NCBI GenBank assembly: GCA_023248155.1
Contig: JAHFFE010000004.1
Location: 4,248-68,247, forward strand
Source of the DNA: Candidatus Omnitrophota bacterium
Lineage (GTDB): Bacteria; Omnitrophota; Gorgyraeia; 1-14-0-20-64-10
Direction: 5' to 3'
DNA length: 64,000 nucleotides
The translations under genes and the position numbers were made by a program. Shown piece after piece: positions 3-24,000 of this stretch; within the stretch, counting starts at the first letter, position 1; each line of letters begins with the position of its first letter. Under the pieces are notes generated by a model. That model saw only the letters and a list, made by a program, of their open reading frames with translations. It was not told where the DNA came from and ran no database searches.

Positions 3-3000
3 GACAGCGGCGCGGATCCGGCTTTTGTGATCGGCTATGATGCCGCCGGCCGTCCGGAATCCGTTACGCTCAACCGCTACGAGTTTGTACCGGCTGAGTA
101 TCGTTATGTGCTGCGTCAAAACTCAGTTTTCTCGGTGCAAGGTTCGGAAGGCGCCGACTTGGGTAATGTACCGCTGGCCAATCGCCGCTATCCGCTGCTG
201 GTTCCGTTGATCGTCAACGACACGCTGGCCGCCATTAATGAATTTGATAATACCGGACGCCGTACCCTGACGCATAATTTTACGCTCGATACGACCTCAG
301 GCGGAACATGGGCGGTCAAGCGCAGCGGCCATACGGAATATTTTTATCAGGCCGACAATACCTCGACGGATGAGGATGAGAGTTTCCGTCTGTTGATGAC
401 ACGGCAGCGGCTGGGCGATAACGCCAATCCCGCGCTGAACCGCCTGGGGACGGATACGGTTTTCGGCAAAGACGGCACGCACGGCATTTATTCGATTGCC
501 TATGACGCGGCCGGCGCTGCGGAAGCGCTGAGCATTTTACGCTACCCGGCGGCCGTGGATAATCCCAACACGCCGCAGAATGAAACGCAGGCGGCTTCGC
601 AAGTGTGGCAGTATCAAATTGAAGGCGCTCCGGACAATCCGATTGTCTGCGTCGGCACGACCTGCACAGCGCCCAATTATGCGCTGGTTGAAGACGCGCT
701 CGGCGGCGTCAAAATCGCGGGCGATGACCGGCTGTTCCGCAAGACGGTCAATAACGCCGCCGGCACGGAAGCGCTCTACAATCTCGATTACGACAGTTCC
801 TTTGGCGCCGGCAACGAGAAAATAGTCTCCATGAGTGTCCTTCGTTATGGCGAGCAAACGGTTGCCGGAACGGTCACGCAGACCATTCCCGCGGCCGGCA
901 CCACGGCGGCCGTGACCCAAAATAACGCGGCTGTGACAGGCGGCATCAAGCGCCGGATGAATACCGAGACCTGGATCTATGACGCCATCGACAGACTTAC
1001 CGGAATTGCCCAGCCTGATCCTGTAGCCGAAGAGCCGCTGGGCGGCCGCAAGCTGGACGGTAATGATGTCTTGGCGCGCAAGGTTTTCAATGACAAAGTC
1101 TTTGGCCGCGTCAGCTATGAGATCGGCTATGATGCCGATACCGGCAAAGCCGTGCTTTTGACGCACAACCATTACGCGCTTGCGGATGACGCGGCGACCG
1201 CTGCGATCGATGAGCGGCTGGTGCGCATGTCCAGCGCCGAATACGTTATTACGGATGATAGCCAGCCTGTCGTGCTAGTTCCGGGTGCGCCTCTTATTCC
1301 GACCGGACTGCCTCCGGGCGTGACACAACCGCTGCCGGAGCGTGTCAGCGGCGCAGTTTTCCTCAGCCGTTGGATGGAGTTCGACGACCGCGGCCGCACC
1401 AAGGCCTTTACCACCTTTGCCCGGGACTCGGACCAAAACGATCCTAAGGCGGTCTTCTACTCGGTGTTTGATTATGCCAGCTATAATCCCGCGGATCGCG
1501 TGACCTTCGGTATGAACAGCACAATTCACCAATACAAGGTCAAAGACCAGGCCGATGGATTGGCGGCTGGCACACCGTATCAAAAAATTGCCGGCGACGA
1601 TGAGCTAATCTCCAAAACCGAACTCGATACCACGCCGGGCAACGGCAACGATGAACTCAAAACGTTTACTTACGAAGACCAGGCGGGTACGCCGGTTGTT
1701 GTTACGCGCACGGATTATGAATATAACCTGGACAGTGCCTCCCATCGCCTGTCGCTTAAATCTGCGAAGACGTACCGGATGTTCGGCGCAGCCCAAGTTC
1801 TTTTCCAAAAGACCGAATATGTGGGCGCGCAGCGCCGCCGTGAAAAAGTGAACCGGGTGATTACGTATCGTGCCGATGGTGTCACGGTCAGCCACACATC
1901 CATGTACTCCTATAACCTTGATGGAACACTGAGCAAGGTGACGGAATATTATCCGGACGGCACGCTGCGGTCCGAAACACAATACAAACAAGTCGGCATT
2001 CAATCTTTGGTTTCCAGGCAGATCCGCTATCGCCTGGATGGTTTTGTGGACGTTGCCTCCGATTATGAATATGAAGGCACGGCCATCCGCAAGATCATCC
2101 AGCGTGACCGCATGGGCCGCATTCTGGCCATCGGAGTCTATGAAGGTTTGGCCGAAGACGAATTGCAGAAAACCCAGACCACCTACGGCCTCGACGGGCA
2201 GGTCAGCGAGATTACGACCTTTTTTTATGACGTCGATAAGGTGCTGATCCGCACCGAAGCCGAATCCGTGACCGGAGTGATTACGACATCCACCTTTGAA
2301 GGTGAACGCCGGCATGAACGCGTCAAGGAAGTCAAGGTCCAGCAGAAAGATTCCATGGGCATGGTGAGTGACGAGACGCTGACCAAGTATATTTACAAGA
2401 CGACAGACAACTCCGGCAATCCGATCCCGTTTGATCTGCAGATGCTGGAGCGGACCGAGACCCGTAACCTTAAATCAACGATTACCACGCTGGCGGGCCC
2501 GATCAATCCTTTGATGCAGATCCAATACTTTACCGGCGCGCGCGGCGAAGAAGTGCTGGATTACGTGAAGCATTTCAGCGTGGATGATGCGGGCCGTGAA
2601 CAGCTTGTCGCCATGGATTTAAAACTTTATCGCAGCCGGAATAACCCGTTCCAAGTCAGCGGCCTAAACTACGGCCTGGATGCCAATCTGGCTTATGACC
2701 GCGCAGCAGATGCGGACTTCCAGGCGCCGCTTGTGGCGGAGTTGAGTTTCGCCTACCGCAATAAGCCTGTGCCGCCCGCAGGCCAGTTTCCGGATCAGCT
2801 TGTGCCGCTGACGCTCGTGGTCTACGACATTGCGCAGGGCCAGCCGCGCCGCCGTCTGGTTAGAAACTTTTATGAAGTCACGGCGGCTCCGATGAATGTT
2901 ACGAACTTCCTGGGCTTTGCCAACGTAAGCGCGGCCAATCTCGGCGAACCGATTACGACTGCGGAGTATACGTATGTCGAGGATGCGCTGAACAAAGTTG

Positions 3001-6000
3001 TGACCTTTGACAAAGCCACGCTGGATGTGCGATCCGTCACGCTTTATTCGGGCTTGCCCGGCAAGGAACGCATCACGTCGGTGACGACTTACAAGCTGCC
3101 GGATTCCAGTTCGGCCACGCATGATTTCCGCACGCGTATGCTGGCCGATATCAATCACGACGGCATTGTAAACAATTACGACGTTTATTTGCTGCAGCAG
3201 TCGATCAACGTGCTGGGTTTTGGGATTCCGGCCTCCGGTACCGGCGTGGCCGTGGGCTTGCGTGATCTGAACGGCGACGGCCGCGTGGATGCCCAGGACG
3301 CCCAGGCGCTGGAACAGGCGGTCAATGCTTTGCGCAGTGTTTCTACCACCAATCTATCGGCACTGCTTTCCGGCGCCGTCATGCAAGTGGATGCCAACGG
3401 CGATGGCGTCGTCGACCAGGCGGAATTAAATGCTTATGGCACAGCGGTACGCAATTATGTAGACGTGGATTTCAGCGGCAGTGTGGGGGCGGGGGATATT
3501 CAAATGATCCAGCGCGCCATGCTGGCCCTGTCGAATTTCGATTCCGACGGCGACAGCGTCAGCGATCTGGCCGAAACCTTTGCCGGCACGGATCCACTCA
3601 GCCCGGTCAGCGGCCCGGATACGGATGGGGACACGATCCCGGATACGGTTGAAATGTCGCTTGGTTCTAACCCGTATGACAGCGCGGATACGCCCGCGAC
3701 CATGATCGATTCGGACCGCGACAGCCGCAGTGACGCCTATGAAAATGCGGCACATACGGACCCCAACGACGCGTTGGAATATCCGGGCAATGCGATTGAT
3801 TCCGATTTTGACGGCTATTCCGATAATGTGGAAACGCGTTATGCGCATACAAGTCCGCGCGATAACTCGGATTTCCCCGGAACCAGCGTCGATACGGACG
3901 GCGACGGCTATAGCGATTCTTATGAACGTCTGACCGGAACGCGTTTTGACGCGGGCGGGGCAAGTGATAATCTGGGCTCGGCAAGTTATCGTGATCAAGA
4001 TGTGGACGGCTTCAGCGATCTTTATGAAAAATTCAGGGGCACGGATTTCAAAGATGCCCGGGATACGCCTGAAGTTTCGACCGACACGGATGCCGACGGC
4101 ATCAGCGACGCTTTTGAATTAAGACTGGGCTCGAATCCGTTCAACGCTTCCGACCTGCCCAATGCGGCCTGGACCGGACCTGCGATCGATGCGGATTCCG
4201 ACGGTCTCAGTGACGCCCTCGAATTATTTGCCGGCTCCAATCCCTTTGATTCGCGGGATATTCCGGATTTGGCGACTTACCGGCCGGTACGGGATACGGA
4301 TCTGGACGGCGTAAGCGACAGCCTTGAACTTCACTATCACGTGAATCCCTATGATGCGTTGGACACGCTCAACTCCGCACGCACGGGGATGGCCAATCCC
4401 GCATTGCAGGATCCGGACGGAGATTTGTTATCCAGCAGTCTTGAACTTTTTATCGGGATCAACCCCAATGATTCCGCGGATCAAGCTGCGGGTGATTTGT
4501 GGGTGCTGGGGATGTCCGGCGCCGGGGTGATCCAATACACGTTAGAAAGCGCGGAAGGTCAATCCATCTATGATCTGTATCGCACGATTCTCGGCCGCGA
4601 TCCCAAAAAAGGCGAGTTGATCCGCGATCTTGTCGATCTCCAGTCCGGTAAAATCACTTTGGAAAGCTTGAAAACGCAGATGCTCTCCTCGGAAGAATAT
4701 GCCGAAACGCGCAGTCTGATGGCACGTGTTACCCACGCGGTCAGCGAAACCCTGCAGGCCTATACGGGCATGCAGCGCGCCGAACAGATTGCTTTTGCGG
4801 CCGGCTTCGGCATTTCTGCCGCCATGGCCGCCAGCCTGAATTTAGATTCGGTTTCTGCGATTGTCAGTTACCTGACGCAGCAAAGCCTGCACTTTGGCGT
4901 CAGCGCGTTTACGGCACTGACATTCATGTTTGAAAAACACGGCGCTGAGGAGTTGGCCTATGACGAATTGGCGCGCCGTGCGCTGCTGACGGATATTTTG
5001 GCCGGCGTCCTTAGGCCCGAAACCCAGGGCGAATTGGTCTTGTCCGCGTTTGCCCTTCAAAAAATAGCCGAACAGGCGGGCTTGAAACTGGCCGGACGGC
5101 AGGCGGCGTTTGAAGACCTTTCGCGATTTAACCTGCCGGCCATCATTCATTTGGACGGCGATCACTTTGCGGTGCTTGAGACTGTGAACGGCGAAACGGT
5201 AGCCATCCGTGAATATACCGGCGATTTGTTTGAACTTTCCAAAACTGAATTCCGCAAGCATTGGGATGGTTTCATCATGGCTCCGCAGAGTGCCTCTGAA
5301 CAAGGCCTGTTGGATGACGCAGCGCTCAAGCTGATCCGCGGGGCGGACATGGTTTTCCGTCTCTATCCTATGACGGATGCCGATGGCGACGGACTTAGCG
5401 ACAGCCTGGAAACCGCGTTGAAAGCGGCAGGCTATGACGTCGATCCCAACCGCGCGGATAATAAAAATATCATTGATTTTGATTTGGACGGTGACGGCGT
5501 TTCAGACCGCGATGAATTGCAGCTGGGAACCAACCCGCATGACGCCGCGGACAAACCCAAGGCCGATCTTTCCGGCCCCGAAACCGACGCCGATGGCGAC
5601 GGCTTCAGCGATAAACTCGAACTAGCGCTTGGAACCAGCCCGTCGCAGGCAGCGGATAAACCCAATGCCTCCAGGACACGGCCCGCCGTCGATCAGGATG
5701 CCGACGGCACAAGCGATATCCGCGAATTGGAACTGGGAACCGATCCGGCCGACGCGTTCAGCCGGCCGTCAATGGACAGTGACGGCGACGGCAGCAGCGA
5801 TGCGGCAGAAAAGACAGCCGGAACCAATGTCTATGACCCGGCAGATTTTACGGGCAGTAGTTCGTGGAGGGATTCGGACGGCGACGGTATTTCTGATTCG
5901 CGTGAAAAACTGGAAGGCACCGGCCCGAATGACGGGGCGGATTATACCGGCGGTCCGAATACGCGTGATTCTGACAATGACGGCTTCAGCGACCGCTATG

Positions 6001-9000
6001 AAGCCGCGCAGGGAACCGATCCGACTGAACGCAAAGATACGCCGCGTTTTAAGGTCGATAGTGATCAGGACGGGATCAGCGATTTGCGCGAAAAGAAACT
6101 GGGCACGAACTGGCTTGACCAGGCCGATCTGCCTGGGAGCGCCATCGATACGGACGGCGACGGCGCTAGTGACAGCCAGGAAAAATTACTACACACCAGT
6201 TACACCGATGCGGCGGACGCGCCGGCCACCAAGGTGGATGCGGACGGCGACGGCTGGAGCGATACGCTGGAAATGCGCCTTGGCACAGACCCGTTCAAAG
6301 CGCTGCAGAATCCGGGCATGGATTCTGACGGAGACGGGATCACGGATCTGGACGAGCGCCGCCTTGGTTCGAATATGTACAGCTCAAGAGAACAGCCGGG
6401 TAATTTTACCGACACTGATTTTGACGGCCGGAGCGATACGCTTGAAATGCTGGATGGCACCAATCCCGAGGACGCTGCGGATTATAAGGGCGCGCCGGGT
6501 TACGCGGATACGGACCGCGATGGCACCAGCGATGCGTATGAAATATTCCTAGGTCTCGACCCGAAGAATCCCTCTTCCAATCTGCGCACGGATACGGACA
6601 AAGACGGCATCCCGGATGTTGTGGAGAAAAAACTGGGTGTGGATAAAGACACCGACGGTGACGGGCTTAAGGATTGGGATGATCCGGATTCCGACAACGA
6701 TGGTTTCTCCGATGGGTACGAAGTCAGAGCCAATACCGATCCGCGCTCGGCGGGCTCTAAACCGCAGCGTCCCGCACTCTCGTCGGAAGCTGGCTGGGCC
6801 ATCCAAAGAGCAAGTCTTATTGCCGGTGGAAGTTTAGGGTATGCCGTCAATCTGAGCGCAATGCTGTATGCGGCCCTGGAAGAAACCCCGGTACAGGCCC
6901 AAATGCTTGCCGCGATTGTAGCCGTCCGCTCTCTTGAGGCCATGACAGCGCTGCTGGAAGGGGAGAGGAATTTCCTTGTGCCGGCCGACAAAGACGCGGT
7001 GGCGCAGATCATCTTACGTTTAACAGATTTGAAAGAGCCGGGTATGGCTGCCAGCATTGCGGTCCAAGCCCAAGACCTTGCGCGAGGCTTTATCAACCGT
7101 TATCAGCTGATGGGCTATCCGGCACCTGAGACCATAGCTAGGGCCGCGGATACCGTGATTTTAATGTATGCGCTTACGGTAGAAATCGACCCCCCTCTTG
7201 CAGCGACGGAGGCGGCCATTGCCAAAGCCAGGGAAGCGGCCTTTAATTTGGCGGAATTGATTCCGGGTTTTGACGCAAAAATGATCGAAGCGCAGTTTGA
7301 AAAACTGGCAAAGATCCGTGCGGATGCAATTGCAGCGGCAGCCGCGATGCAAGCGCTCTTAGCAGGTTTAGCGCAATCCCTGACAGTAAAAATTCAACCA
7401 GGCTCCGATGCCACGGAAGCGGTGGTCGCTGAGGCTAAAGAACTTGTCGCCGATTTGGCAAAATTGATTCCGGGTTTTGATGTGGAAAGAATCGAAATTG
7501 AGTTTGACAATTTAGAAGAAGCCCGCGCGAATGCTGCAAGCAATCCGGCAGCGGCCGCGGCCGCGTCGTCCCGCATTGAAACGCTGTTATCCGATATCAC
7601 GCAAGCCCTGACCAAAGAAATTAAACCCGGTTCAGATGCGACGGAAACAGTCATTGCCAAAGCCAAAGAAGCTGTTTTAGATTTGGCGGAATTGATTCCG
7701 AATGCTCCGACGGAAAACATCGAAGCCCAGTTTAAAAAGCTGGCAACGGTCCGTAAAGATGCCATGGCTGCCGCCGCTGCCGCCGGGACCCTGCAATCCG
7801 ATATTTCAACGGCCGGCAGCCCGAATGCTGTAACCGCCAAAGGCGCGGCGCTGGCCGCCCAGCTTACTGCGGAAATTTCCACGGCGGATACCGTGTCCGA
7901 ACAGGCGCCGGTGACGGCGGCGGTAATCGCGGCTTCGTCCTTGCAGACGCTGGCAGCCATTCTCAGTGCCGAGAGTATGCCGCAGGTTGTCCGTGATCGG
8001 GCCGGCGAGGCGCTTGTGCGCGCAGCCCAAATTGCATCTTCGGCGCAAGCAGCTTCGGCCGTGGCTAGCGCCAAAGAAGCGGCGGATTTGGCTCAAAGCC
8101 TGTTGTCCCAAGCGCGGGATTTGGATGCGGCTGTACCCGCGGCGGCCGCTGTCGCAGCCGATACGGCGGTTTTGGCGCAGGCTCTAGCCCAAGAACTTCA
8201 GCCCGGAAACCCTGCGAGCAAAGCGGCCATTGCAGCCGCCGCGCAAATCACAGCCTATTTAACCCAACTGACGCCCGGCTTCAGCGAGGACAGCGCGGCA
8301 ACGCTGCTGCAAAATCTTTCAGACGGAATGAGTTCGGGAATTACAACATTTGAGACCAAAGCCGCGCTGGCGGCCAAGGCTGTCAGCCTGGCGGCTGAGT
8401 TGGCTGAATCTCTGTCCACGCAGAGCCAGACAGCCGCAGTGATTGCGGCCCAAGCAGCAACTCAGGCCGTGGTTTCACTGGCTTTGGCGGCCGAGGAACT
8501 TTCCGCGGCCGGCCTGCCGGAAACCGTAAAATCCGCAGCGAACGCCGCCGCGTCGCGGGCTGCGGCGTTAGGCGCAAGTCTGGCCGGATCTTCAGTGACG
8601 GCCGAACGAGCTTCGGCCGCGGCGGAAGAAGCCGGTGCGCTGATTACAAATCTGGCGGCGCTTGTGGATGAAAATACGGGGTCTGTGCCGCCGGCCGTTC
8701 TGCGGGCGGTGCATGCGGCCGAATTGTCACAAGAGTTGATCGAGGCCGCCGTCCAGGATCGTATGGAGAATACCGCAGGCCTGGCGGCAGAAATCGCCTT
8801 GAATATGACGGCCTCTGCGCCGGGATTTGCGCCTGCCGGGATTGTTGAAGCCATGAACCGGCTGGTTCTTTCCGTGGTGGACGATCAGGATGGAGACGGC
8901 GTCAGTGATGCGCAGGAAACTGAACTTGGCTTGGATCCGCTTAAAGCCGACACGGACGGCGATGGCTTTGGCGACGGCGAGGAATTGTCGTTGGGTACGG

Positions 9001-12000
9001 ACGGCCGGGATAGTTCGAGCAGCGCGCGCGATTATGGCCGCTTCCAGTTGACGCCGCAATCGCTTGCGATTGCGGATATCGACGACAACGGCCTTGTCGA
9101 TCAGGCCGATTTTGCCATCCTGCATAATTTATTAACGAACTTCATCGACATCGACCGTTCCGGCACGCTGGATGAAGGTGATATTCAGCGCGAAAATGAG
9201 ATTGCGCGTTTCTTCAGCCTGGCCGCCAGCCAGCAGCAGCTCGACCGTGCCAATGTCAATGGTGATGATGTTGTTGACGACAAAGACATCGAGGCGATGG
9301 AGGCGGTCCTTAAGTATTACAAAGATGTCAGCGGCGACGGGGTGGTGAGTATGGAAGATGTTGCGATTCTGGACCGTTTGAGATCCCTAGCGGTGCCGAT
9401 CACGCCGGCCGAAGCCCGCAAAGCCGATGTTAACGGGGACGGCGTGATCAACCGGGACGATCTGGAGATGATTGAAGATATCCGCAAACGGCTGGTGGAC
9501 ATGAATGACGACGGCAAGGTGGATTCAACGGATATCGAGCGTTTCCGTGAAGTTCTCGAAGCCTGGAAATTAAAAGTGACGTCGCAGGAGCGCAGTCTGG
9601 CTGATTACAACAAGGATGGCGTCGTGGACGCGTTTGACCGTTTCGCACTGCTGAATGACCTTAAGCTAATGCAGGATGTCAACGGTGACGGCAGTATCGA
9701 CGGCATTGACATTCGCCGCATTGAAATGCTGGTCGGAACGGACAAACAATTTCAGGACATTACCGTGGCCATGGTCAACCGTTCCGACTTCAATGCCAGC
9801 GGCCTGATTGAGGTCGAGGATTACAATGCCATCCGCGATGCTTTCGAGCATACGGTCAATATTGACGGCAATGCCAGCGTGGATGCGGCCGACCTTGAGC
9901 GCCTGAAACTGATCATCACCTATGTCCGGGACGGCGTAGACCCGGAAGAATTGGTGCGCGCCGACGTCTTTCATGACGACCAACTCACCAAGGCGGATTA
10001 CGAGCACTGGAAGATCGCTTATGACACGCTCTATGGCCCAGGCGCCAAGCCTTTGGCGGATTTTGACGGCGATGGCAAGGTGACAAGTTTCGATCTTAAC
10101 CTTTTATCGAATCTGACGGCGCGCAATGCCGATCAGCAGCTTTTGCGTGACGCCATCCGCGCGGATGTCAACGGCACGCGCCTGATTGATCCGGCGGATT
10201 ACCGTTTGGTCAAAGACAACGTGGACACGCTGATTGACGTGGACGGCAGCGGCAAGACCACGAGCGCGGATCTTGACCGCATCGTCAAGATCATGGATCT
10301 GAATGACAACGCGCTCAGTTTCAGTGCAGAGACCGTGCGCCGCGCCGATCTGGACCGCGACGGGACGGTCAGTCCCGCCGACAGTAAGGCCTTCAAAGAC
10401 GCGCTTCTGCTGCTGTATTCGGGCTGGGGGCAGCCGAAGATTGATCTTAACGGCATTGATGTGAACCGCGACGGCATTTATGAACGGACCGGCGACCACA
10501 AAATCGATATCCTGGACATTCAGGAAATGGACAATATCCGCGATTTCCTTGAGTTCAAGACCGAGACGGATGCCGGGCCGCTGGAAAATTACGACGTGGA
10601 CGGAAACGGCACGGTCAATGATGCGGACCGCGATGAAATCGTGCGTAATCTGGAGCGGCTCAAGGACCTCAACCATGACCGCGTCATTAACCTCAAGGAT
10701 AAAGAGCGCCACGAATTGATCATTCACAACATTGCCGACGGTTATGTGGATCTGAAGTATTTTTATACGACGTCCGATGAACTCCTGCGTGCCAATCTAG
10801 AAGGCAATGACAATGATATTGACCAGAATGACTATGAGGCCCTGCGCGCGGGCGTGAATAGTTTCTCGACGGAATCCCGTTTTGACATTGATAACAACGG
10901 CCGGGTGGACCGCGAAGACCTGTACCGCATGAAATTCGTTCTGGAAAATCGCAGCCGCAATCAGCTGGTTAAAGCGTCTTATGTCGTCAAGGCGGATCTC
11001 AACAATGATGGCAAGATTTCGCTGGCGGACCGCACTCTGCTGCAAAATGCCATTCAGACCGGTTCAACACAGACGGCGCTCTATGACATCAACGAAGACG
11101 GCAGTGTGAACCAGGCTGACGGCGATACGCTCTTCCACATCTGGAAATACCTGGATTCTCGCGATCTGGTCAACGCTGACGTCAATCATGACGGCAAGCT
11201 GACGGATGCAGACGCTAACTTGCTGGAGAGCAAAATTCAGGCTGGCGGAGCGGACCTTCTGTTTGATATCAATGGCGATGACTTGATCAATGGCAATGAC
11301 GTGCTTGCACTGCGCAATATCGCTTCGCGCTGGGCCGTGCCTGGGATTACGCTGGCAGACCTGCGCCTGGCGGACGTAGACCTTGGTGTTGTGACGGGCA
11401 ACGGGCTCTTGGAAAGCGAAGATTTGACCGTGTTTGGCGCGGCCTATGACAAAATCATCCGCCTGGATGTTGACGGCGACGGCGTATTGACCGGCAGCGA
11501 ACTGGTCAAAATCAACGAAGTGCTCGGCGTCGTTCTTGGCCGGCGTGTATTCCCGCAGACGATCATTGATAAGGCCGATGTCAATCGCGACGGCACGGTC
11601 AACTCCGCCGATCAGGACATGACAGATCTTGCGCTCAAGCGGATTGCGGGACTTTATGATCCCGAACTAGAAAATGTGGAGGAGGCTAAAACCAAGATCG
11701 ACCGGATTATCCGTTTCCTGGATCTGCAGGCCGCGGCGGTTCTGCGCACCAAGGCGGATAAAGATCAAAACGGCGTGACCTCCGCCGGGGAATTGAATGA
11801 TCTGGCCGCGAGCCTGACCCTGCAAGGGTATGCCCAGGCGGAAGTCAACCGCATCATGACGGATGTCAATGCCGTACTTACGGATGCGGAGAAAGAACGC
11901 GGGGATATTGACCATGACGACGACGTGGATACGACAGACCGCGACCTTCTGGCCGCAGCTCTGAGCAAGGCCGCGCTCTACGATGTCAACGGCGACACGG

Positions 12001-15000
12001 TCAATGATCAGGCCGACGTGACGCGCATGACCGAAATCCTCAATGCCATTGCCGCGGGCATCATTCCCGATTATGTCTTCAACGGCAATCTGAATAAAGA
12101 CCTTCTGATTTCTCAGCCGGATGCGGATCTGATGGCGGAGCTGCTGCCGGAAGCCGCGGATGTCGACGGCGACGGCACGGTGGACCTGGCCGACTATGAG
12201 CGGCTTAAACAGCTGGTGGCTTTTGCAACGAACGCAATCTCGGTGGCTGAAATCCAGCGCGCCGATGTCAACCATGATACGTTTGTGGATCAGCACGACT
12301 ATGATGATCTCGACGCCGCGTTAGCGAGTGCGGCCCGCTTTGACGTCGACGGCAATCAAAAATTTGAACAGCGCGATGTCAATGCCGTCAGCGAAATGGT
12401 CGCCAAGCACATCACTTCAGCCACGCTGACCCGGGCCGATCTCAATGCGGACGGCCGGGTTGATCATCTGGATGCGCGCGCGTTGAGCGAGGCGCTGGGC
12501 CGGGGCGTGGACGTCAACGGCAACGGCAGTTTTGATGCGGCCGATGTCTACCGCATTGACGACGTGATCCGCGCCAACCGCATCGCGGCCACGGATTATG
12601 AATACCAGCTGCTGGACGTCAATGCCGACGGCTTGCGCAATGACCGCGATTTGAGCGACTTTATCGATGCCGTGCGCCGCGTGCCGTCGGACTTTAACCA
12701 AGACGGCCATTACGACAAGACGGATATGGAAGACCTTCAGGAGATTGTGACCCGCATGGCTGCGGCCGGCGTAACGCTGGATATGTTTGCCAAAGCCGAT
12801 GTCGACGGCAACGGCACGATCGAAACGGCGGACAGCACGAAATTGGAACAAGCCTTGAAATATGTCAAGGATATCGACGGCAACGGCATTGTCAACGAAC
12901 TCGACCTGACGCGCCTGCGTGATTTGCTGGAGTACCAAACTCTGCAGACCGGCCTGCGCCGCGATGCGCTGGCGAGTATGGATTTGACGGGGGAGGGCCA
13001 ATTGACGACGGCTGACCTTACCAAACTGCAGGGCTGGCTGGATAATCCCGCGTCGGCCACGGCGCTTGAGAAACACCGCGCCGATATCACGGGCGATGGC
13101 CGCTTCCAGGCCGATGACTACGATGCGCTCAATGCGATTTTGCAGATTTTGAAGAAAGACTTAAACGGCGATCTGCGCGTGGACCGCGCCGACCTTCAAT
13201 TCCTGATGGACCGCATTGCCGAAAGAACCGCGCTGCTGGCCAAATTCGATGTCAAAGCTGACAACGCGCTCACCGCCGGAGACACAACGGTCTTTGATAC
13301 GCTGCAGGCGGATTTTGGCGGGCTTATTTCGCCGCGGCGTTTTGATCTCAATAACGACGGCGCGGTCAATGCAGATGATGACAAACTGCTGGCCGATTAT
13401 GTCAGCGGACGCAGAACCGTGACGCCTGCGCTTTTTGATGTTCTCAATCTGAACGGCGATACCCTGGTAGGGCCTGCGGATCAAACCCTGCTGCAGGATG
13501 CGATCCGTATCCTTAAGGCCGATTTCAACGGCGACTTCCTGGTGGATGCAGCCGACCGCGGCTTGCTGGCCGATGGCGTGACGGGCGCGATCAAACGCTT
13601 TGAAACCCTTGACCTGACTTATGATTTTAACCAGAGCCAGACATTGACCGCGGATGACCGCGGGCCGCTCTTGGAAACCATGCGGGCGTTTGTGCGCGAT
13701 ATCCGGCCGTACAGCCGCGCGGATGTCAACCGCGATGGCGTCATCGGTGAAGAAGAACGCGCGGCCCTGCTGGATACAATCCGCTATTACGTGGATCTGG
13801 ACGGCATTGGCGGCGTGAATCAGGGCGATGTCCAGCTGCTGGAGCGTGTGCTGGCCTACCGCCGTTTGAATGTTCAGGATGCCGAAAGAGACCTGGCGGA
13901 TATCGACGGCGACGGCACGGTGGAACCGGACGATATCACGCAGCTGCAGGAAGGGCTGGCTTTGTTGAAACGCGCGGACATCACCGGCGACGGCCAATTG
14001 ACCAGCGCGGATACGGCGCGCGTGACGCAGATCGCCGATTTTCTGCGCCTTAATCCGGCGGCGGCCATGCCCTTTACGCTGGCGGAACTGAAGGCCGCGG
14101 ACGTGAACCTGGATGACGCTGTGGATGAAAAGGATATCGCCGTGATTCAGGACTATCTCAACAATCGCTATGACATCAACCGCAGCGGCGCGATTGATCA
14201 GACGGATCTGACCCGCTTTGCGAATATCATCAAGTACTTTGAATTGAAGGTCACGCCGGCAGATTTGATCCGGGCGGACTTTGACGGCGACGGCGTGCTG
14301 GAGGATGAAGACTTGACGATGCTGCGCGAGTATCTGCCGCGTTTTCAGCAGGGGGACATGAACGGCGATCACGTGCTTGACGGCGCTGATTTGGCGATCA
14401 TGCAGGATATTACGCGCTTCCTGGATGTGAAGAGTTTCGGCTTTAAGCAGATCGGCGGCCAGGATTATGACAACGACGGTATCGTGGATGTCTATCACAC
14501 GCTCTCACCCCTGCACCGCGCTGACATTAATCACGACGGCAAGATTACGGTCGAGGACCGGCATGAAATTGAAACGCTGATTCTGAGTCTGATCGATATC
14601 AACAACGACCAGGAGATTGACGAAGACGATCTGTCGCGCATGGCGGAAATTTTGGAAGCCGTAAAACTGAACGTCAAACAGTATGATCTGGCCAAGGCCG
14701 ATGTGGACGGCGACGGTTTCATCACGGGTTTCGACATTACGGAACTGGATAACGTCCTTGGCATTTTGCACGAATATGACCTGGACCGCGACGGCGATAC
14801 GGATGCGGACGACATCAAGATCGTCACGGATATTTTTGACAAGGCCCAGGCCATGCCGTTTACGCTGGAGGAACTGCGCATGGCCGACCTAAATCAGGAC
14901 GGCATTGTGGATGCGCGTGATCAGGCCGCCGTGCTGGACGTGCTTTCGAAGATTCGCGATGTCAACGGCGACGGCGTGACGGACATTTCGGACGTTGAAA

Positions 15001-18000
15001 AACTGGATCAATTACTGCGCATCACCGAGCTTAACCTCAAGCCTTACGAAATCAGCAATGCGGATGTGGACGCAAACGGCTTTGTGGATGAAATGGACAA
15101 ACTGCTGCTCGAACAAAGCATTGCGCTCTTCAGCAACGCCGATAATCTCGATGTGAACCGCGATGGCAAGGTCAATGAACTCGATGTGGAAGCCGTGCAA
15201 AGCCTGATTGCGGCTATTGCCCGCCAGGAGCAGATTCCGCTTGAGGAATTGACGCGCCGCGATATTACCCGGGACGGCACGGTCGATGACAAGGACGTGC
15301 AGGAAATCCTGAAAATTCTGCGTTTGCATACCGACGTCAACGGCGACGGCATCATCAACCAGGCCGATGTCAACCGTATTTGGGACGTGCAGAAATACCT
15401 GGCTTATAACATCAAACCCTCGGAACAAGCGCTGGCCGATGTCAATGAAGACGGAATCGTGGATACGGAAGATATTCTGGAACTGCGCCGCCGCCTGGCA
15501 GTTTTGCGGCGCGGCAATTTTGACAACGACCAGGACGTGGACGCCGATGACCTTGCCATCTTGCAAGCCACGGTGACTTTTGTCGAATCCATCAACCCGG
15601 AACTGCCCGGCCTGGCCCAGCGCATTGACTTTGACCGTTCCGGCCTGATCGATGAAACCGACCGTGCCCGGCTGCTGCAGATCTTGAGTTACCGGATTGA
15701 TTTGACAGGTGACGGCCTTGTGGATTCCGAGGATATCGATTATCTCTACCTGGCGATCGATGCGCTGGCCGCCGGCATTGCCAATCCGAACAAAGATATC
15801 GACGGCAATGGCGTGGTGGAAGGCACGGAGGATACCAATAACAACGGCATTCTGGATGAAGGCGAAGATCTGGATGCGGACGGCGTGCTGGATCTCGGAG
15901 ACGTCGGGCTGCTGAAGCAGAGCGTCGAGACCCTGCGTCAGTTTGATATGAATAGCGACAATGTCGTGGATCAAAGAGACCTGGATCTCTTGATGGACAT
16001 TATTTCTTATGCCTACGCTGACGGCGCGGTCTATGCGCGCGAATTCCGCCAGGCGGATATCAACGGCGACCGTGCGGTCAACGGCGCGGACAAGGAACTG
16101 GTTTTGGCCGCTGCCGGCAGCTGGTCTGTCCGCAAAACCGCCGCGCAGACCGCCGCGCGATTTGCCTTCACGGCCGGAGATCATCAGACGCTTTATTCTT
16201 CCGTCAACAATGCGTTCGTGGAATATGAACTGGCTTTGTCGCCGGCGGGCACCGGCACCTATGAAGTCGGTCTGTCCGCGCAGACGCATAACAATCTGAC
16301 GCCGCCTGCGGGTTACCAATACCGTTTCGATGCCTATGTGGACAATGTCTATCAGGGGCGCATTGAAATTCCGGCCTCGCGCACTTTAGCCACCGAAGGC
16401 TTCCTGAAGCTGGACCTCGAGCCGGGCCGCCATAACCTGCGGCTGGTTTGGACCAACAAAGAAGCGGGCACCAATGTCGAAATTAAAGAAATCTTTGCGC
16501 GCAATATCATGGACATTGCCGGCGCTGAAGGCTCGGCCTTTGCGCCGGATGGCCAAGTCAACGGGAATGATACCGATCTCATCGACCGCGTCATGGCCTT
16601 TTTCCCGAAAATCGACGTCAACGGCGACGGCTGGTTCCATCTGGACGATGCGCGCCAATACCGCCTCGACATTGCCCAGGCGCGCGTGCTCTACGGCTTA
16701 AATGACCGCGGCGACCTCAACCTGGCCGATGCGCCGGATGCCGCCGGACTGCTGGCGCGCTGGGACTTAAACCGTGACGGCGTCGTCAACCGCGCGGATG
16801 AAGACCATATGGAACAAATTGCCTTTTCAATCTATCAGGTGGACCGCTTGAACGGCGCGGACATGGACGGCAACGGACGCATTACGTCCCGGGATACGGA
16901 ACTGCTTGAAGAAGCCGTGCGCGCCCTGGTGGACGTGGACCAAAACGGCATCGTCGATGATAAAGACGTTTTCCGCATCCAGGATGTGATTGATTTCAAA
17001 TTGCTCAACCTCAAAGACGGCGAAAGCGAGCGCGCCGACATCAACCATGACGGCCGCGTCGATCATCTGGATAAAGATATTTTGGAACTCAACCTTGGCC
17101 TGATGCAGCAGTATGACGCCAACCGTGACCATGTCACCGATGCGCGTGATCTGAATCTGATCATCAATACGCTCAAGCTTTTTGCAGCCGACAGCGCCAA
17201 AATTGCGCTGGCGGATCTGAATAAAAACGGGTTTATCGACAGCGAAGACACCGCCCTGATTAAGGACAGTTTTTACCGCGGCGTGGATCTCAATGATGAC
17301 GGGCGTATTGATACCCGCGATGTCGAAATCGTGCGTGAGCTTAAAGCACGCGGCCTCTACAACACGCAAGCGGATCTGGAACCTGCGGGAGCGCCCAATG
17401 GCGTCATCAATCAAGCGGACATCGACGCCTTTGAAACCATTGTGCGCAATCGCGTGGATATCAACGGCGATGGGGTCATGGATGTCATTGATTTTGCCTA
17501 CACCATGGTCGAATTGGACCGCACGGTCTATGCCCAAGCCGATAAAGACGGCGATGGCGAAGTTACGGCCGCGGATCTGGAGGCGGTCAAGGCCGACCTG
17601 GCGCGGCTGGACGCCAACATGGACGGCATCGCCGACGTGTCTGATTTTGATCTTTATGAAGATGCAATTCGTCTGGTGTTGAATAACAATTTGACGGCCA
17701 ACGGCGCCACGGAAGCGCAGATCCTGAAGGCCTTGCGTATTTTGAAACCCACGCGGCCCAGCGATGACAGTCTGAGTTCGAACCTTTCCGTGCGCGGCAA
17801 TTTTGACGACGCGGCGATTTTGAGTTTGTTTACGCCGCAGGCCGGCGCCTGGCGCCAGGAAGGTATTTTTGCGGTGCAGTCCAATGCGCAAACCGAGGCC
17901 TGGAGCGAGGCGGGCGCCGCGGATTGGCGCGACATCGCGCTCGGAGCGGATCTGGAATTCCGCAGTTATAGCCGCCAGGCTGGGTTCCGTTTCCGTGTTC

Positions 18001-21000
18001 AGAATGACCGCAATTATTACTCCGTCATGCTGGCCGGCGACCGGTTGATTTTGGAAGCCGTGCGCAATAATGTGCGCAGCGTCCTGGCTGAAACGCAGCT
18101 TTCTGAGGCCACGCAGAATGAATCGCGCTATTACTTGGAAGTTTCCGCCATGGGCACCGAACTTCATGTGCGTTTAAACGGCCGTGACATGCTGACGGCA
18201 ACCGATGACAGTTTTGCTGCCGGTAAAATTGCCCTGCAGAGCACGGACTCCTACGTGAAATTTTCAAATCTGGCGCTGGATGCGGATGCAGACCTGGAGT
18301 ATTTGAGAACCACGCACATGCTCAAGACCGATCTTACGGGTGATGGCATCGTCAATAGCGCGGATGAGAACCTGCTGGCGGCGATTCAAGCGCTTGGACT
18401 CACCGACTTGAATTTGGACGGAAACGTGGATGCGGCGGACCGCAACTTGCTGCGCCTGAGCGCGTTTGCGGATTTTGACGGCGACACCCAGCTGGAACTT
18501 GAAGATTTGGATGCCGCAAATCTGCTGGTGCTGGATGGCGACGGCAACGGCCTTATGGACGGCCGCGACCTGACCGTGGTGGACGGCTACGTGCATCTGG
18601 CCGATCAAATTCAGTACGAAGTCTTTTCGATTCTGGATCGTGCGGATGTGGACGGATCGACCAAGGCCGAGATGGCGGATCTGACCAAGGCCACCCTGAT
18701 GGTCTGGCGCTATTTTGATTTTAACGGCGTTGATGGAGTTGACACGGATGACTGGGAGCGCTTGAAGATCGTGATCGCGGCCCGCCGCTTGTTCCCGAAT
18801 ACGGTCGTGATCGAAGACCTGATCAAGAAAATTGATTTTAATAAAAATGGCCGAGTCGATGATGCCGACAAAGCCCAGCTGGCGGATAACATCCGGGATT
18901 TTAACCTCGTCGATGTGAACCAGGACGGCATCATCAACGATAAAGACGTCAAGGCGGTCCAGGCCATTGTGGACACGATTTTATATATTCAGGAACTGAA
19001 TCCGTCTTCGATTATTTCTGAAGACCTTACCGGTGACGGCCTGATCGATATGCGGGATGTCAAGGAGGCGCTGGCGTTTCTGAATACGCTGGTGGACCGC
19101 AGCCCTCAAGACGGCATCGCCGATGCCTCAGCCATGGATGCCTTGCTGGAAGACTTGAAATCGATTGCGCTTTTCCAGCCGCCGCCCGAGGTCTGGGAGG
19201 CCGCGGATCTCAACAATGACCATCAAGTCGATATCGCCGATATCCAGATTTTCCTCAGCCGGCTGACAAGCTATGTTTTTACCGACCTCAATGATAACCA
19301 GCAGGTGACCAAGCAAGACCTTGAAATTGCGCGCACCTTGATTAATTACGTCAATCAATCGGTGCGCTATAGCGCCCGCCAGCTTGTGCTGGCGGATCTG
19401 GACGCCAGCGGCCAAGTGGATGCGGCCGATGCGCAGATCGCCGATGCGTTCCGCGATATCGACGGCAGCGGAACGGTCGAAGAACGTGACCGGCTGCTGG
19501 CGCAATACCTGGTCTTCCGCAGCCGGACTGATCTGGATGGCGACGGTGTGTTTGCGGCGAGCGACCGCGCGCTGGTGCGCTCGATGCTCGGCGCCCAATC
19601 ACTTGTGCAGTTCGGTACGCAAGCCACTCAATCGACGGCGCTCGAGCCGCTGGGCAATAACCTGATCGCCCAGGCGGCCGGCAGCCACTTTACCTACCGC
19701 TTTGAGATCACCGAAAGCGGTCTCTATGACGTCGGCGTTTCATTGAAGGCCTACGATAAAGTCGTGGCTGCGGGCTATGAATATCCGGTGGATGTTTATG
19801 TGGATGGTGAAAAGAAGGGCGAAATCCGCGTGGCCGGATCGAGCGTGGAATTTAACAGCGCCTCGCTCAAGCTGGAACTTCCCAAGGGGCCGCATCTGGT
19901 GAAGTTTGTGACGCGCACGCCGTCTGCGGATAATCACAAGATTCAGATGCACGAAGCGTTTGCACGCGCTGCCGCGGACTTAAATCAGGACGGCCTTGTG
20001 GACGTCAACGATGTCACGCTGATCGAGATGATTGCCGGCCGTTCGCTGGCAAGTGCCAAAGCCGATGTGACCGGCGAAGGCGCGGTGGACAATGCTGATG
20101 TGACTAAAATTCAGGAAATGACCGCGCAGTTCGCGCAGGCTTCACTGGCTCTGACCTATACGGATGCCGAAGGTCAAGTCCGGACGCTGGACAAGAACGG
20201 CGTTCTTGGCGCCCTGGCCTCCTTCGAAGGACTTAAACTCGATGGCGCGGATCTCAAAGTGCTGGAAACCTGGCGCGAGAATTTCAATACCAGCCTGGAA
20301 ACCAGTTTGTTGTCGCTTAACTCCCAGGCCCGCATTGAAGACGGCCGTCTTCAACTGTCGGCGCCGGCGGTGCCGGGCACGGCGGCCAAAGCGGAGTTCG
20401 GGTTTGCGGATTGGAAGACCGCAGGGGTTGAAACGCAGGTGCGGCTCGGTGGCGCCGGTACGGCGGAACGGTCGGCGGGCGTGATTCTGCGCGTTCAGGA
20501 TGAAAACAATTTTGTGCGCGTGCGTATCGTGCGCACCGGCGCGAGCCGCGACGCGCTGCGCGTTGAAAAAATTACCAACGGGGCTGTCACGCTGCTGTTG
20601 CCTGAGGTCCTGCTGGGCGCCGAAGTGCTGACCGATCCGTTCTACGGGTTGAAAGTTGAATTGGGCGCCGACACACTCAAAGTTTTTGTCAACGGCGCGC
20701 TGAAAGCGGAAAAAACAGGGTTAGGCGAGCCGGTTCAGGGCCGTTTGGCACTTTTTGCCGCCAACACCGAGGCGTCGTTCGATTCGCTGAGTGTGACGGC
20801 GGACATCCGCTTTGCGGATCTCGGCCCGGGCCTGCTTGTCCGCGATTTGGATAAAGACGGCAAACTCACGGCTTCCGACGATGCCATCCGCGCCGCGCTG
20901 ACTGCGTTCATGCAGGAAAATCAAAATACGGAATTTTTGCTGAATCTGGGCCGCGCGGATATCAATGCGGACGGCCGGTTAAATACGGAAGATGCCCAGC

Positions 21001-24000
21001 TGGTCAGCGACCGGATCAATGAAACGACGATTCGCGCCCGCGTGGACTTAAACAATGATAGCGTGCTGGAAGGAGCCGAGGCGCAGCGAATTGCGCAGGC
21101 CATCCGCGGCATGCAGGACGTCAACGAACAAAACGGCATTACTTCCGCGGATGCGGATCTGATCAAACAGATGGCGGCGCTGTCGCTCTTCCGCGACATT
21201 CCGGCCGGGGATTTAAACCGCGACGGCCTGGCCGGCAATCTGGATGCGGAGGAAATCAGGAAGTTTCTGGATTCGCTCTACCGCGGCTTGAATGTCTCAA
21301 GTCAGGAGCAGGCGCTGGCCGACGTCAATCAGGACGGCGTGGTCAACTATGTGGATATCGGCCTGCTGCTCAAGGCCAATACGCTTTATTTGCGCAGTGA
21401 CATTAACGGCGATGCTTCCGTCGATGAATTGGATCTTCTGCGTATGGACGGCATTTTGGAAGCGCTTTTCTCCGACGAATTGATCAACCGTGAAATCATC
21501 GCGCGCGCAGACCTGACGGGCGCGGATATCAATGCCGACGGCGTGGGCGACAAGGACGGTTTTATCCGTGCGGAGGATGAAGCCCTGTTTGCGAAATCGC
21601 TGGCGCTGTGGCGCGATCTTTCCGGGGACGGCAAGGTCGATGACAAGGACATCGCGTTGATTCAGCAGGGCCTGGATTTTCTGGCCAAGACCGGCGGCAT
21701 TTTACCCTCAGTTTCCAATTTTAACGGCGCGATGGTGGCGGCCGCGCTCAGACAGCTTAACGCGATAACTTACCGCGAAAAATCCCAGCGGCTTTTAACG
21801 GCCATGCTGTCGGAGCAAAACTTCGAGACCGATACCACGGGCTGGAGCTTTGACACCACCGGCTCCTGGCGCCGGATTGCCGGCCAACTGGTGCAGGAAA
21901 AAGCCATTACGCAGGAAATGACGAAAGCGACGATGGCCGGTACGGTCGAGAATTTCAATCTGAGCGTCAACTTCCGTTTTGACGGCACGAGCGGCCAGCC
22001 CGGCCGCGGCGGGTTTATTTTCAGGCTGGATCCTGTGACCGGCGATCATTACGACATTCTGGTAGACGGCGGCGTTTTCACTCTGCGCAAATTTACGGGC
22101 GGGAAGTATCAAAATCTGGCCACGCATGCGATTCAAGCCGACGAGGATTTCCATACGCTGGTTCTGCGCGCACACGAAGACAAGATTGAGGCTGTTTTGG
22201 ATGGCAGTGAAATTCTCTTCAAGATTCAGGATGGCGATCTGGAACGCGGCGGCCTGCAGATGTTTACCGGCCGCGGCACGATTGGCCGGTTTGAATCGGT
22301 GCGCGTCGACAACGTGGCCTTTCCGCCTGTCCAGGCCGGCTTGGCGCTCTTGGAACCGGTCGCGATGGAACAAAGCGTTGAAGACTTTGTCCTTGAAGCG
22401 GATCTGACGCTGGACGGCAGCCAGGTACCGCCCGTGATGACCGGGATGCCGCAGCCCAACGAAGGCCGCCAGGCCGGCGTCTTGTTTGCCTCGGCGGCCG
22501 ATGGTTCCGGATACCGCCTCAATTTCCGGCCCGACAGCGGCAAGATCGAACTTTACCGGCTGCAGGACAGCCAGGCGGAACGCTTGGGCTACGGCGTGAT
22601 TCCGGTCAGCGGCTGGGATAAACCGTATCATCTGGAAATCAAGCGCTCCGGCGGCCTGATCCGCGTTTTCGTCAACCACATGGAACTGATCAGCGTGGAT
22701 GACAGAGTTTTGGGCGGCGGGACGCTCAGTTTCTTTAGTGAAAATCAGACCGGCCTTGCGGCGGCCAACGTCCAACTGCGCAAAATGACGGCCTTTGACG
22801 ACATCGCCCGCAGCCTTTCGCTGAGCAAGGATTTGACCGGCGACGGCACCGTCAACGGCACGGATTACATGGTGCTGGCGGACCTGAATTCGGTGGTGAT
22901 CTCTGATTACAACGGCGACAAGATCCTGGATGAGCGCGATGCCGGCCTGTTCATGGCCCTGGCTTCCGGCCGGCTGGATGTCAACGGCGATCTTGCGCTG
23001 ACGCCGCAGGATTCCAGCGACTATGCCGACGCTTACCGGGGCCATGTGGACATTGATCAGGACGGCTTTGTCGACGCCCAGGATTTAGCGCGCCTGCAGT
23101 TTTTACGCCAGACGATCCGGGATTTCGGTGCGGCCGCGACGCCGCAGACTTTCTCGATGACGGATCTGCAAAAAGCCAATATCAATCAGGACAAGAGCGG
23201 GGCCGTCAACCAGGCGGATCTGTTCCTGCTGACCTCGGCCCACAATCTGATTACCAAACTGGTCTCCGCGCCTCTGATGTTTGACCTGCCGAGTTACCGG
23301 GCGATGACGGCTGAAGCCAAAGCGCAGTATGTGGCTGATTTTAACGAGGCCAAGAAAACGCACTACACAGCGGAGCAAATATCCTTTGCCGACGAAATCG
23401 ACTGGCGCGGCGACGTCAATGGCAGCGGGCTTACCGATCAAACGGACTTTGACTTGCTGCGTACGATCATTACGCTGACCCACACGGGCGCGGACGTCAA
23501 CAAGCTAAAACATGCGGACATCAACCGCGACGGCACGATCGATGCGGCCGATGTGGATTTTTACCGCAGTCTGCTGCCGGATCGAGTCGATGTGGATGAA
23601 AATGGTGTGGTCAATCATGACGACTATCTGGCCGTGCGCCAGGCCTACTTTCGCAGTGTGCTGGCCGATCTCAATGGCGACGGCTCGGTCGACGGTTTTG
23701 ATTTAGACAGCCTGCAGAACCTGCTGGGTCTGAAGGACGTCCGCATAGACGCGCTCAAGGCCTCCGACTGGCAGGGACGCGTCTCGGGCAGCGGTTTTGC
23801 CATGAGCGGCTCGGAAGCGGTGGCGGAGTCCGATGCCTGGATTGAATTTCCGCTGGCGATTGCCAACCGCGGCACGTATGACGTGGGTCTGGATGTGATT
23901 AATTTCGAAAAATTTGACCTGCCGGCGGGCTATCACTACCACTTTGAAGTCGAAATCAACGGCGCGCACGCGGGGGATATTTATCTGCCGGCATCGGCCG

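Follow-up and report, generated by a model that had tools for sequence, protein, structure and literature searches.

The 64,000-nt stretch of DNA analysed here (hereafter the window) comes from Candidatus Omnitrophota bacterium (assembly GCA_023248155.1, contig JAHFFE010000004.1, positions 4,248 to 68,247, forward strand), and this report concerns a C39-like peptidase domain embedded in the giant calcium-binding surface protein that it encodes. A six-frame scan showed the whole window to be a single uninterrupted open reading frame in frame +3 (nt 3..63998, + strand, 21,332 codons), and the host gene must exceed the window in length since neither its start nor its stop lies inside the 64 kb. 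The protein (11% Ala, 10% Asp and only 9 Cys per 21,332 aa) has the dockerin/TSP3/EF-hand/DUF1080 make-up of a 'Dockerin-type' giant protein: Pfam scans along its length found Dockerin_1, EF-hand_7 and TSP3_bac in many repeats and PF06439/DUF1080 once, and no ABC transporter domains in the host frame. With residue i starting at nt 3+3(i-1), the region in question begins with an upstream TSP3 (calcium-binding) array (nt 3540..4493, aa ~1180-1497; TSP3_bac 76.7 bits, DxDxDxxxD motifs at aa 1180-1431). It continues, always on the + strand, with a divergent DUF4214-like element and helical linker (4518..4790, aa 1506-1596), the C39-like papain-fold domain (4794..5285, aa 1598-1761) and a double-glycine-leader-like motif (5310..5345, aa 1770-1781), and it ends with a downstream TSP3 array (5376..6767, aa ~1792-2255; TSP3_bac 136.6 bits, DxDxDxxxD motifs at aa 1792-2229). 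An initial annotation of this DNA had described a C39-like domain placed between two TSP3 arrays, with its catalytic Cys apparently replaced by Phe. The placement is correct, and the peptide on which that annotation relied, QQSLHFGVS, is indeed encoded from nt 4878 (aa 1626, frame +3). The C39-like domain is internal to the protein and single-copy, no second copy of the module being present in the window.

By sequence profiles and structure prediction, this segment has the C39-type reduced papain fold. The Pfam profile PF03412 (Peptidase_C39) matches it with 52 bits (E 8e-14, cut-off 22), a significant match that is limited to profile positions 45-131 of 133, that is to the C-terminal half holding the His and Asp blocks; the same part of the profile is matched by 6/6 relatives tested. 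Comparison with PDB sequences by phmmer and by a family profile, again covering the C-terminal half only, retrieved PCAT1, LahT, ComA and the Cpe1/StbD toxins and, more weakly, HlyB and the Vibrio C39-like domains (CLDs) of non-catalytic type. The family profile scored 40 bits with PCAT1, 38 with LahT and 28 with ComA, all of them active peptidases, versus 18 with HlyB and 17 with Vibrio 3b79 (both CLDs); the C39 toxins 8ssk and 9l5u matched weakly (23-27 bits). An AlphaFold2 model of the domain built with a 28-sequence alignment reached a predicted local distance difference test score (pLDDT) of 95.3 and a predicted template-modelling score of 0.87, as compared to a pLDDT of 48 only for the single sequence without alignment. 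In a Foldseek search against PDB, 31/31 matches at E <= 1e-3 were C39 peptidases, C39-like domains or C39 toxins, headed by 3b79, 3zua, PCAT1, LahT and ComA, the two best (3b79, 3zua) being CLDs. For 3b79, 3zua, 6mpz and 5xe9 the E-values ranged from 4e-7 to 3e-6 with target-normalised template-modelling (TM) scores of 0.66-0.76 (single-domain chains, 133-147 columns), and for full-length PCAT1 chains the query-normalised TM was ~0.6. Finally, hhalign alignment of the 116-copy family with a small canonical C39 alignment (P0151, PCAT1 and S. mutans ComA) gave a probability of 98.7-98.9. The C39 resemblance claimed initially is thus well founded.

An exhaustive HMMER search revealed 366 relatives of the domain (122 at E <= 1e-10); word-indexed homologue searches returned 0 matches with the domain and 1 with the family alignment, so that the family was recovered by exhaustive HMMER only. 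Nearly all relatives sit within proteins of 2,000-7,000 aa, some of which have two or three copies, and all seven relatives with a named source (7/7) are from Omnitrophota. The closest of them (P0001, MBI3306558.1, from a Candidatus Omnitrophica metagenome-assembled genome) shares 48% identity with the window domain, and another (P0003) belongs to Ca. Gorgyraea atricola. The C39-like module is probably exported, since the relatives begin with signal-peptide-like N-termini. As compared to canonical C39 domains, the family has an insertion, 'DILAG' in the window (nt 4992-5006, aa 1664-1668) and 'D-I-L-t-G' in its family form, whose Asp and Gly are nearly invariant (each in 113/116 copies).

The residue that replaces the catalytic Cys cannot be placed by the Pfam, NCBIfam or PDB sequence matches because these are limited to the C-terminal half of C39. 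We derived the register from four independent lines (profile-profile alignment, family columns, model helix and Gly spacing). Both in global and in local mode, hhalign sets Ser1634 opposite the Cys of 'DCG' in P0151/PCAT1/ComA, with a moderate posterior (~0.5-0.6). Across the 116 copies, which share ~30% identity, column 1634 holds Ser (89), Cys (26) or Thr (1) and nothing else, and column 1631 takes hydrophobic residues only (Phe 89, Val 16, Ile 6, Leu 4). Helix 36-48 of the model has its first residues at Val1633/Ser1634 (model residues 36-37), which puts Ser1634 at the helix N-terminus, the place where the nucleophile of papain-fold enzymes of clan CA sits. Gly1647 lies 13 residues past Ser1634, the same Cys-to-Gly spacing as in PCAT1 (DCGAACLSSIAQYYG). 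On these alignment and model grounds, the Cys-equivalent residue is Ser1634 (AGC, nt 4902..4904), the proposed nucleophile, and not Phe1631 (TTT, nt 4893..4895), which is hydrophobic and conserved, belongs to the loop preceding helix 1 and is placed by hhalign 3 residues ahead of the Cys column. The initial annotation was therefore right that the catalytic Cys is missing and off by three residues in naming Phe as its replacement. The local resemblance of 'HFG' to 'dCG' and the presence of Gln1626 five residues before Phe1631 speak for its register; the hhalign alignment, the hydrophobic column 1631, the 13-residue spacing and the position of the model helix all speak against it.

The composition of column 1634 carries most of the weight in the case for a nucleophile at this position. 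Position 1634 probably still serves as a nucleophile because only Ser, Cys and Thr are seen there: a helix N-cap should tolerate Asp or Asn as well, and a residue of purely structural function Ala or Gly, and neither pair occurs. The AGC codon of Ser1634 is one base change from the Cys codon TGC. The putative remainder of the triad is conserved as well. His1721 (DGDHFAVL, nt 5163..5165), the catalytic-His equivalent, is found in 116/116 copies and aligns to the His of PCAT1 'AHFVVI', native H99 in the numbering of PMC6959990. Glu1737 (nt 5211..5213), the candidate third triad residue, occupies the Asp position (aligned to the Asp of PCAT1 'VADPGKG') and lies 16 residues past His1721, as does D115 with respect to H99 in PCAT1; its column holds Asp (63) or Glu (50), together 113/116 copies. 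The His block reported initially is present, the residue of the Asp block being Glu1737.

Cys and Ser interchange within the family. It splits into a Ser group ('sLHFGxSAF') and a Cys group ('tNVINCA'), and beyond this split the Ser/Cys switch happened at least three more times. One protein (P0012) has two 98%-identical paralogous copies, one INCA and one INSA; another (P0060) shows HFGECA within a Ser-type background; and the nearest neighbour of a Cys form (P0104) is a Ser form. Other copies of the domain accordingly do contain Cys at the position 1634 column (26/116), the majority having Ser (89/116) as in the window. In the multi-copy proteins (P0003, P0004, P0006, P0011) the leader-like motif is kept after the first copy only, and the Cys-type copies further on ('MGxYVINCA') have Pro-rich sequence in place of the motif; their action could be in trans or at another site. 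Several of the named relatives, among them the Ser-type members P0017 and P0019 (MDP2928511.1 and MFH0763460.1), are publicly annotated as 'cysteine peptidase family C39 domain-containing protein', a label that is chemically wrong for Ser-type members because their nucleophile position holds Ser.

A search for Gly-Gly-type cleavage motifs in the protein, suggested by the initial annotation, yielded a leader-like site 36 nt beyond the end of the segment described there, which we regard as the result that tells most about the module. This motif, L1770-D-D-A-A-L1775-K-L-I1778-R-G1780-A1781, starts 8 residues beyond the C39-like domain (~8-25 residues across relatives) and ends at the predicted scissile bond Ala1781/Asp1782 (after nt 5345), the downstream TSP3 array starting 10 residues past the predicted cut. 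Among 109 relatives the columns of the motif are Leu (82) or Ile (18) at -12; Ser (41), Thr (29) or Asn (17) at -11; Glu (46) or Gln (29) at -8; Ala (41), Leu (19), Thr (16) or Met (10) at -7; Ile (80), Val (17) or Leu (8) at -4; Arg (61) or Lys (30) at -3; Gly (105) at -2; and Ala (63) or Ser (37) at -1. By the test [ILVM]-x-G-[ASG] in register, the motif is present in 99/109 relatives (83/86 Ser-type, 15/22 Cys-type). One published form of the double-glycine leader reads L(-12)xxxE(-8)L(-7)xxxxG(-2)G(-1), with its helix from -10 to -4 lying in a hydrophobic groove of the peptidase (PMC6959990), and a leader consensus ...ELX3E(I/L)X2(I/V)XG(G/A) is attributed to Dirix 2004 in the passage of PMC3140520 that quotes it; C39 domains cleave after Gly-Gly, Gly-Ala or Gly-Ser. 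Compared one position after another, the window motif agrees in spacing with these published double-glycine leaders, and the identification rests on this agreement because the motif is too short for significance in hidden Markov model (HMM) searches. The 21,332 aa contain a single match to a strict regular expression of the motif (0.145 expected from shuffles), and a motif HMM run over the host protein gave no second match.

We also looked for covariation between the motif and the domain, using mutual information with average product correction over 12 tail positions and 164 domain columns (1,968 pairs) in 101 paired sequences. Among the 1,968, tail -7 with column 1686 came first with 6.5 standard deviations (SD), as compared to 3.5 SD for the next pair, and it remained at rank 1 after sequence weighting (effective number of sequences 69, 4.2 SD). 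Glu at -7 is paired with Arg or Lys at 1686 in 11/12 cases (Fisher 5e-8, a value not corrected for phylogeny), and the other pairings (Thr with Asn, Ala with Ser) are chemically sensible too. In the alignment to PCAT1, the counterpart of column 1686 is chain residue 62 (Ile59 in native numbering) and that of column 1682 is native Ala55, the +3 offset between chain and native numbering having been checked via Cys21 and His99. The leader residues L(-7) and L(-12) are reported to make contact with precisely Ile59 and Ala55 in the PCAT1-substrate structure (PMC6959990), and the chance of a random top pair falling on one of those four combinations is ~0.2%. The covariation is suggestive support, at the level of the alignment, for docking of the tail in the groove of the domain.

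The upstream partner also appears in the relatives. A family HMM of the upstream region gave one match in the window (aa 1506-1596, 80.8 bits), and its DUF4214-like element (nt 4563-4706, aa 1521-1568) has a core ('IYDLYRTILGRDP...E') that corresponds to 'Y..ILGRDP...E', which is conserved in Ser-type relatives. The DUF4214-like motif mentioned in the initial annotation falls below the PF13946 threshold in the window itself (12.6-15.5 bits, cut-off 23.2), but PF13946 matches 17/22 upstream regions of relatives at E <= 0.1 (best 1.1e-5). Judged from these profiles, the element is a real but divergent conserved partner of the C39-like domain.

The nearest well-characterized counterparts of this domain are the peptidases of the PCAT/AMS exporters (PCAT1, ComA, LahT, CvaB; PF03412, MEROPS C39). 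They share with it the fold (target-normalised TM 0.66-0.74 for isolated ComA, LahT and PCAT1), the His block, the 16-residue His-to-acidic spacing and the 'IIHxxxxHF' signature. Common to both are also the substrate motif L(-12)..E(-8)[LA](-7)..I(-4).G(-2)[GAS](-1) and groove residues aligned to A55 and I59. They differ in that the domain described here has a Ser in the nucleophile position and a Glu as the acidic residue, carries an extra N-terminal helical extension and the conserved 'D-I-L-x-G' insertion, and lies inside an exported protein of >21,000 aa without fusion to an ABC transporter. Unlike the cytoplasmic peptidase domains of PCATs, it is also probably located outside the cytoplasm, and its leader lies on the C-terminal side of the protease within one chain instead of being the N-terminus of a separate small peptide. 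The CLDs of RTX exporters (HlyB 3zua, Vibrio 3b79) resemble it in having the C39 fold without Cys but with the His kept, and they give the best Foldseek E-values. In contrast, they are N-terminal parts of transporters that bind unfolded RTX substrates without cutting them, while the present family admits Ser, Cys or Thr only, has a Gly-Ala leader-type motif attached and scores much lower with CLDs than with active peptidases.

A likeness of another sort is offered by the StbD-CT and Cpe1 toxins (8ssk, 9l5u), where a C39 domain also resides in a very large secreted protein and cuts a Gly-Gly/Ala site in cis. StbD has its site in the upstream linker and a redox-gated Cys, and its C39 domain is a toxin at the C-terminus that targets GyrB and ParE and has an immunity protein; in the window, the site is downstream with a full leader pattern and the nucleophile would be Ser. 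Natural papain-like families with Ser at the Cys position and the His and acidic residue kept (menin, APC5867/PF09641, DUF2145, DUF2272, DUF3750) are uniformly Ser and of unproven or non-protease function (PMC10318531), unlike the present one, where Ser and Cys interchange even between paralogous copies and a substrate motif is attached. The C80 protease domains of MARTX and large clostridial toxins are a functional analogue only, as internal proteases that auto-process a giant secreted protein; they have a different fold, are activated by inositol hexakisphosphate, use a Cys nucleophile and cut after Leu, and bear no sequence or structural relationship to C39.

The presence of C39 domains in Omnitrophota giant proteins is already reported. 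In the study by West-Roberts et al. 2023 (bioRxiv 10.1101/2023.11.21.568195) C39 domains are noted in such proteins, with the suggestion that they might cleave them; these domains are almost certainly of the same family as ours, and the host architecture is the 'Dockerin-type' described there (dockerin/EF-hand and bacterial TSP3 repeats plus DUF1080). In a second study, no architecture cluster of long Omnitrophota proteins is larger than the PF03412-only group (bioRxiv 10.64898/2026.06.07.730766). The passages retrieved by term search from these two sources (bioRxiv 10.1101/2023.11.21.568195 and 10.64898/2026.06.07.730766) make no mention of a Cys-to-Ser replacement, a DUF4214 partner or an adjacent motif. 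A Ser nucleophile interchanging with Cys and a leader motif in cis appear to be new.

Taking the above together, we lean, by a modest degree of confidence resting on alignments and a predicted structure, towards the view that the domain is a Ser-His-Glu C39 autoprotease that would cut after Ala1781. The proposed system is a three-part cassette between the two TSP3 arrays, in which the DUF4214-like element and the C39-type domain would be followed by the leader motif LDDAALKLIRGA as the domain's own substrate. A Ser1634-His1721-Glu1737 triad would replace Cys-His-Asp. The amphipathic stretch from -12 to -4 would dock on the domain in its hydrophobic groove, in the way of bacteriocin leaders on PCAT1 or LahT, and Gly1780-Ala1781 would enter the narrow active-site cleft. 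A single cut, made in cis or by a neighbouring copy, would then sever the bond after Ala1781, giving an N-terminal piece (repeats, dockerins, the first TSP3 array and the protease) and a remainder of >19,500 residues. Substituting Ser for Cys would make this step insensitive to oxidation, fitting an extracellular and almost Cys-free protein. A precedent for such self-processing exists in the C39 domain of StbD-CT, which cuts its own linker in cis at GG/A and loses its activity on oxidation (bioRxiv 10.64898/2026.05.07.723447).

Several observations weigh against self-cleavage. Replacement of Cys by Ser usually cripples papain-fold enzymes, engineered C-to-S mutants being at best weakly active, and none of the natural Ser-bearing papain-like families is proven active (PMC10318531); a low activity, on the other hand, may suffice for a single-turnover reaction in cis. 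Retention of the Gln of the oxyanion hole is not clear: Gln1627 stands 7 residues before Ser instead of 6, with a column of only Q56/R30, and His1630 at -4 is better conserved (H90/N11). The linker of ~8 residues may be too short for docking in cis in the window protein, as compared to 12-25 in relatives. Searches with the tails against NCBIfam identified no leader family, the only match being a sub-threshold one to mersacidin/lichenicidin in one relative (E 0.045), and a 20-column tail profile run against PDB sequences found chance matches only (E >= 0.3). As to the covariation, we treat it as suggestive because the signal is lost with 53 cluster representatives, and is thus partly clade-driven, and because it drops to rank 9 in a reduced alphabet, where the Ser/Cys subfamily split dominates.

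Alternatively, the domain could be a non-catalytic C39-like pseudo-peptidase, clamping the adjacent leader-like helix or a partner's motif as an intramolecular latch or docking device in the manner of the HlyB CLD. We consider this doubtful, albeit with real points in its favour: the Cys is absent, the two best Foldseek matches (3b79, 3zua) are CLDs, and the tail-groove covariation speaks for binding and not necessarily for cleavage. CLDs, as Lecher et al. are said to have described in 2012, retain the His without having a protease function. The usual inactivation of papain-fold enzymes by a Cys-to-Ser change (PMC10318531) points the same way. What a pseudo-peptidase leaves unexplained is a column restricted to Ser, Cys and Thr with repeated Ser/Cys switching, Asp or Glu retained in 113/116 copies, and, in 83/86 Ser-type members, a Gly at -2 followed by a small residue at -1; the sequence profile, moreover, is nearer to active peptidases than to CLDs. 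HlyB itself has Tyr at the Cys position. Of the two roles offered in the initial annotation, docking and cryptic autoprocessing by a nearby Ser, the Ser/Cys/Thr column, the invariant His and the Gly-Ala motif favour the second and make docking the less likely one.

A different role would be that of a peptidase or effector acting in trans on Gly-Gly sites of prey, of a host surface or of co-secreted leader peptides, like StbD-CT and Cpe1, with the adjacent motif being an auto-release or auto-inhibitory site only, or unrelated. Matches to the C39 toxins 8ssk and 9l5u in both Foldseek and HMM searches are consistent with it, as is the capacity of StbD-CT for both auto-processing and target cleavage; in addition, West-Roberts et al. 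link Omnitrophota giant proteins to predation by way of proposal and state that their C39 domains 'may cleave other protein substrates' (bioRxiv 10.1101/2023.11.21.568195). We nevertheless regard it as quite improbable: the domain is internal and not C-terminal, no small immunity-like gene follows the C39-bearing gene in either of two loci of relatives (L003 and L004), the sole leader-like site in 21,332 aa adjoins the domain, and the toxin matches are weaker than the PCAT matches. As for the register with Phe1631 at the Cys position, which would mean a dead C39 domain with a hydrophobic residue in its active site, the alignment, column and helix evidence given above makes it exceedingly implausible.

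The relatives differ from the window protein in what follows the motif. In 61/83 Ser-type relatives the motif leads directly into a long hydrophobic stretch rich in Gly, Ala and Ser, which is missing from the window protein, where the second TSP3 array follows instead. An example of such a 'glycine-zipper' stretch is found in L003 (nt ~16200-16900; P0014 aa 2068-2300; FFFFFVPMIIGALSSIGGVVASVIAGVGALIGSVGALVG...), and the stretch recalls bacteriocin cores or viral fusion peptides. One could accordingly envisage the family as an extracytoplasmic Ser-based C39 autoprotease whose cut unmasks a 'glycine-zipper' N-terminus in most members (...IRGA/FFPLLFAAIFGAISSIGSAIGAVIAGIG), the module in the window having been redeployed to sever a TSP3/dockerin adhesin; we rate this extended version of self-cleavage as unlikely. 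If true, it would amount to a priming step like the proteolytic exposure of fusion peptides in viruses, and predatory or episymbiotic Omnitrophota would insert a part of a giant surface protein into the prey membrane. In both L003 and L004, a gene for a PLDc_2 (phospholipase-D-like) protein lies upstream of the C39-bearing long gene (8364-9818 and 2525-4270, respectively), two loci being too few to call this neighbour conserved.

Elsewhere in the host protein, 8/9 Cys residues occur in close pairs of the form CxxxxC or CxxxC (aa 216/221, 18932/18937, 19005/19009 and 19877/19882; nt 648-665, 56796-56813, 57015-57029 and 59631-59648, + strand), which points to a small number of local disulfide or metal sites in a protein otherwise free of Cys. 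Beyond the downstream TSP3 array, a region at nt ~6810-8880 (aa ~2270-2960) consists of Ala-rich, seemingly helical repeats of ~100 residues, each with 'LAELIPGFD...IE.QF..L'; it has no Pfam match and contains the only two weakly transmembrane-like hydrophobic segments of the protein (aa 2637-2655 and 2811-2830). The single PF06439 (3-keto-disaccharide hydrolase / DUF1080) domain is at nt ~21828-22217 (aa ~7276-7405, E 6.6e-12). A motif 'h-x-h-G-G-x-x-Y-x-V' recurs over aa ~9000-20800 (nt ~27000-62400; e.g. QALNVGGAVYHVART and ALVDLGGVRYRVATD) and resembles the turn of a beta-hairpin unit that repeats through the Pfam-dark bulk of the protein; its likeness to a leader-type cleavage site is nil. 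Other GG dipeptides were considered as cut sites and rejected: there are 89 of them versus 137 expected, and their recurrent pattern reflects the beta-hairpin periodicity without the -4/-7/-12 pattern. Stop-free stretches of up to 987 codons run along one antisense frame of the - strand (e.g. 53868-56828, 51240-53549 and 23706-25658). They are unusually long and probably reflect the codon and repeat make-up of the giant gene rather than genes of their own.

The question addressed by these results is whether the Omnitrophota proteins of 20,000-150,000 residues are single chains or are cut, on which published work has only speculated. The self-cleavage proposed here would reduce this question, for the window protein, to one predicted bond (Ala1781/Asp1782, with the aligned G-[AS] bond in ~100 relatives), one putative nucleophile (Ser1634) and one candidate recognition helix. 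If true, this would be the first C39 clade with a natural interchange of Ser and Cys nucleophiles, and a system in which to study how the papain fold tolerates serine. It would also mean that the bacteriocin-type pair of a double-glycine leader and a C39 peptidase can fuse in one chain as a self-cleaving cassette.

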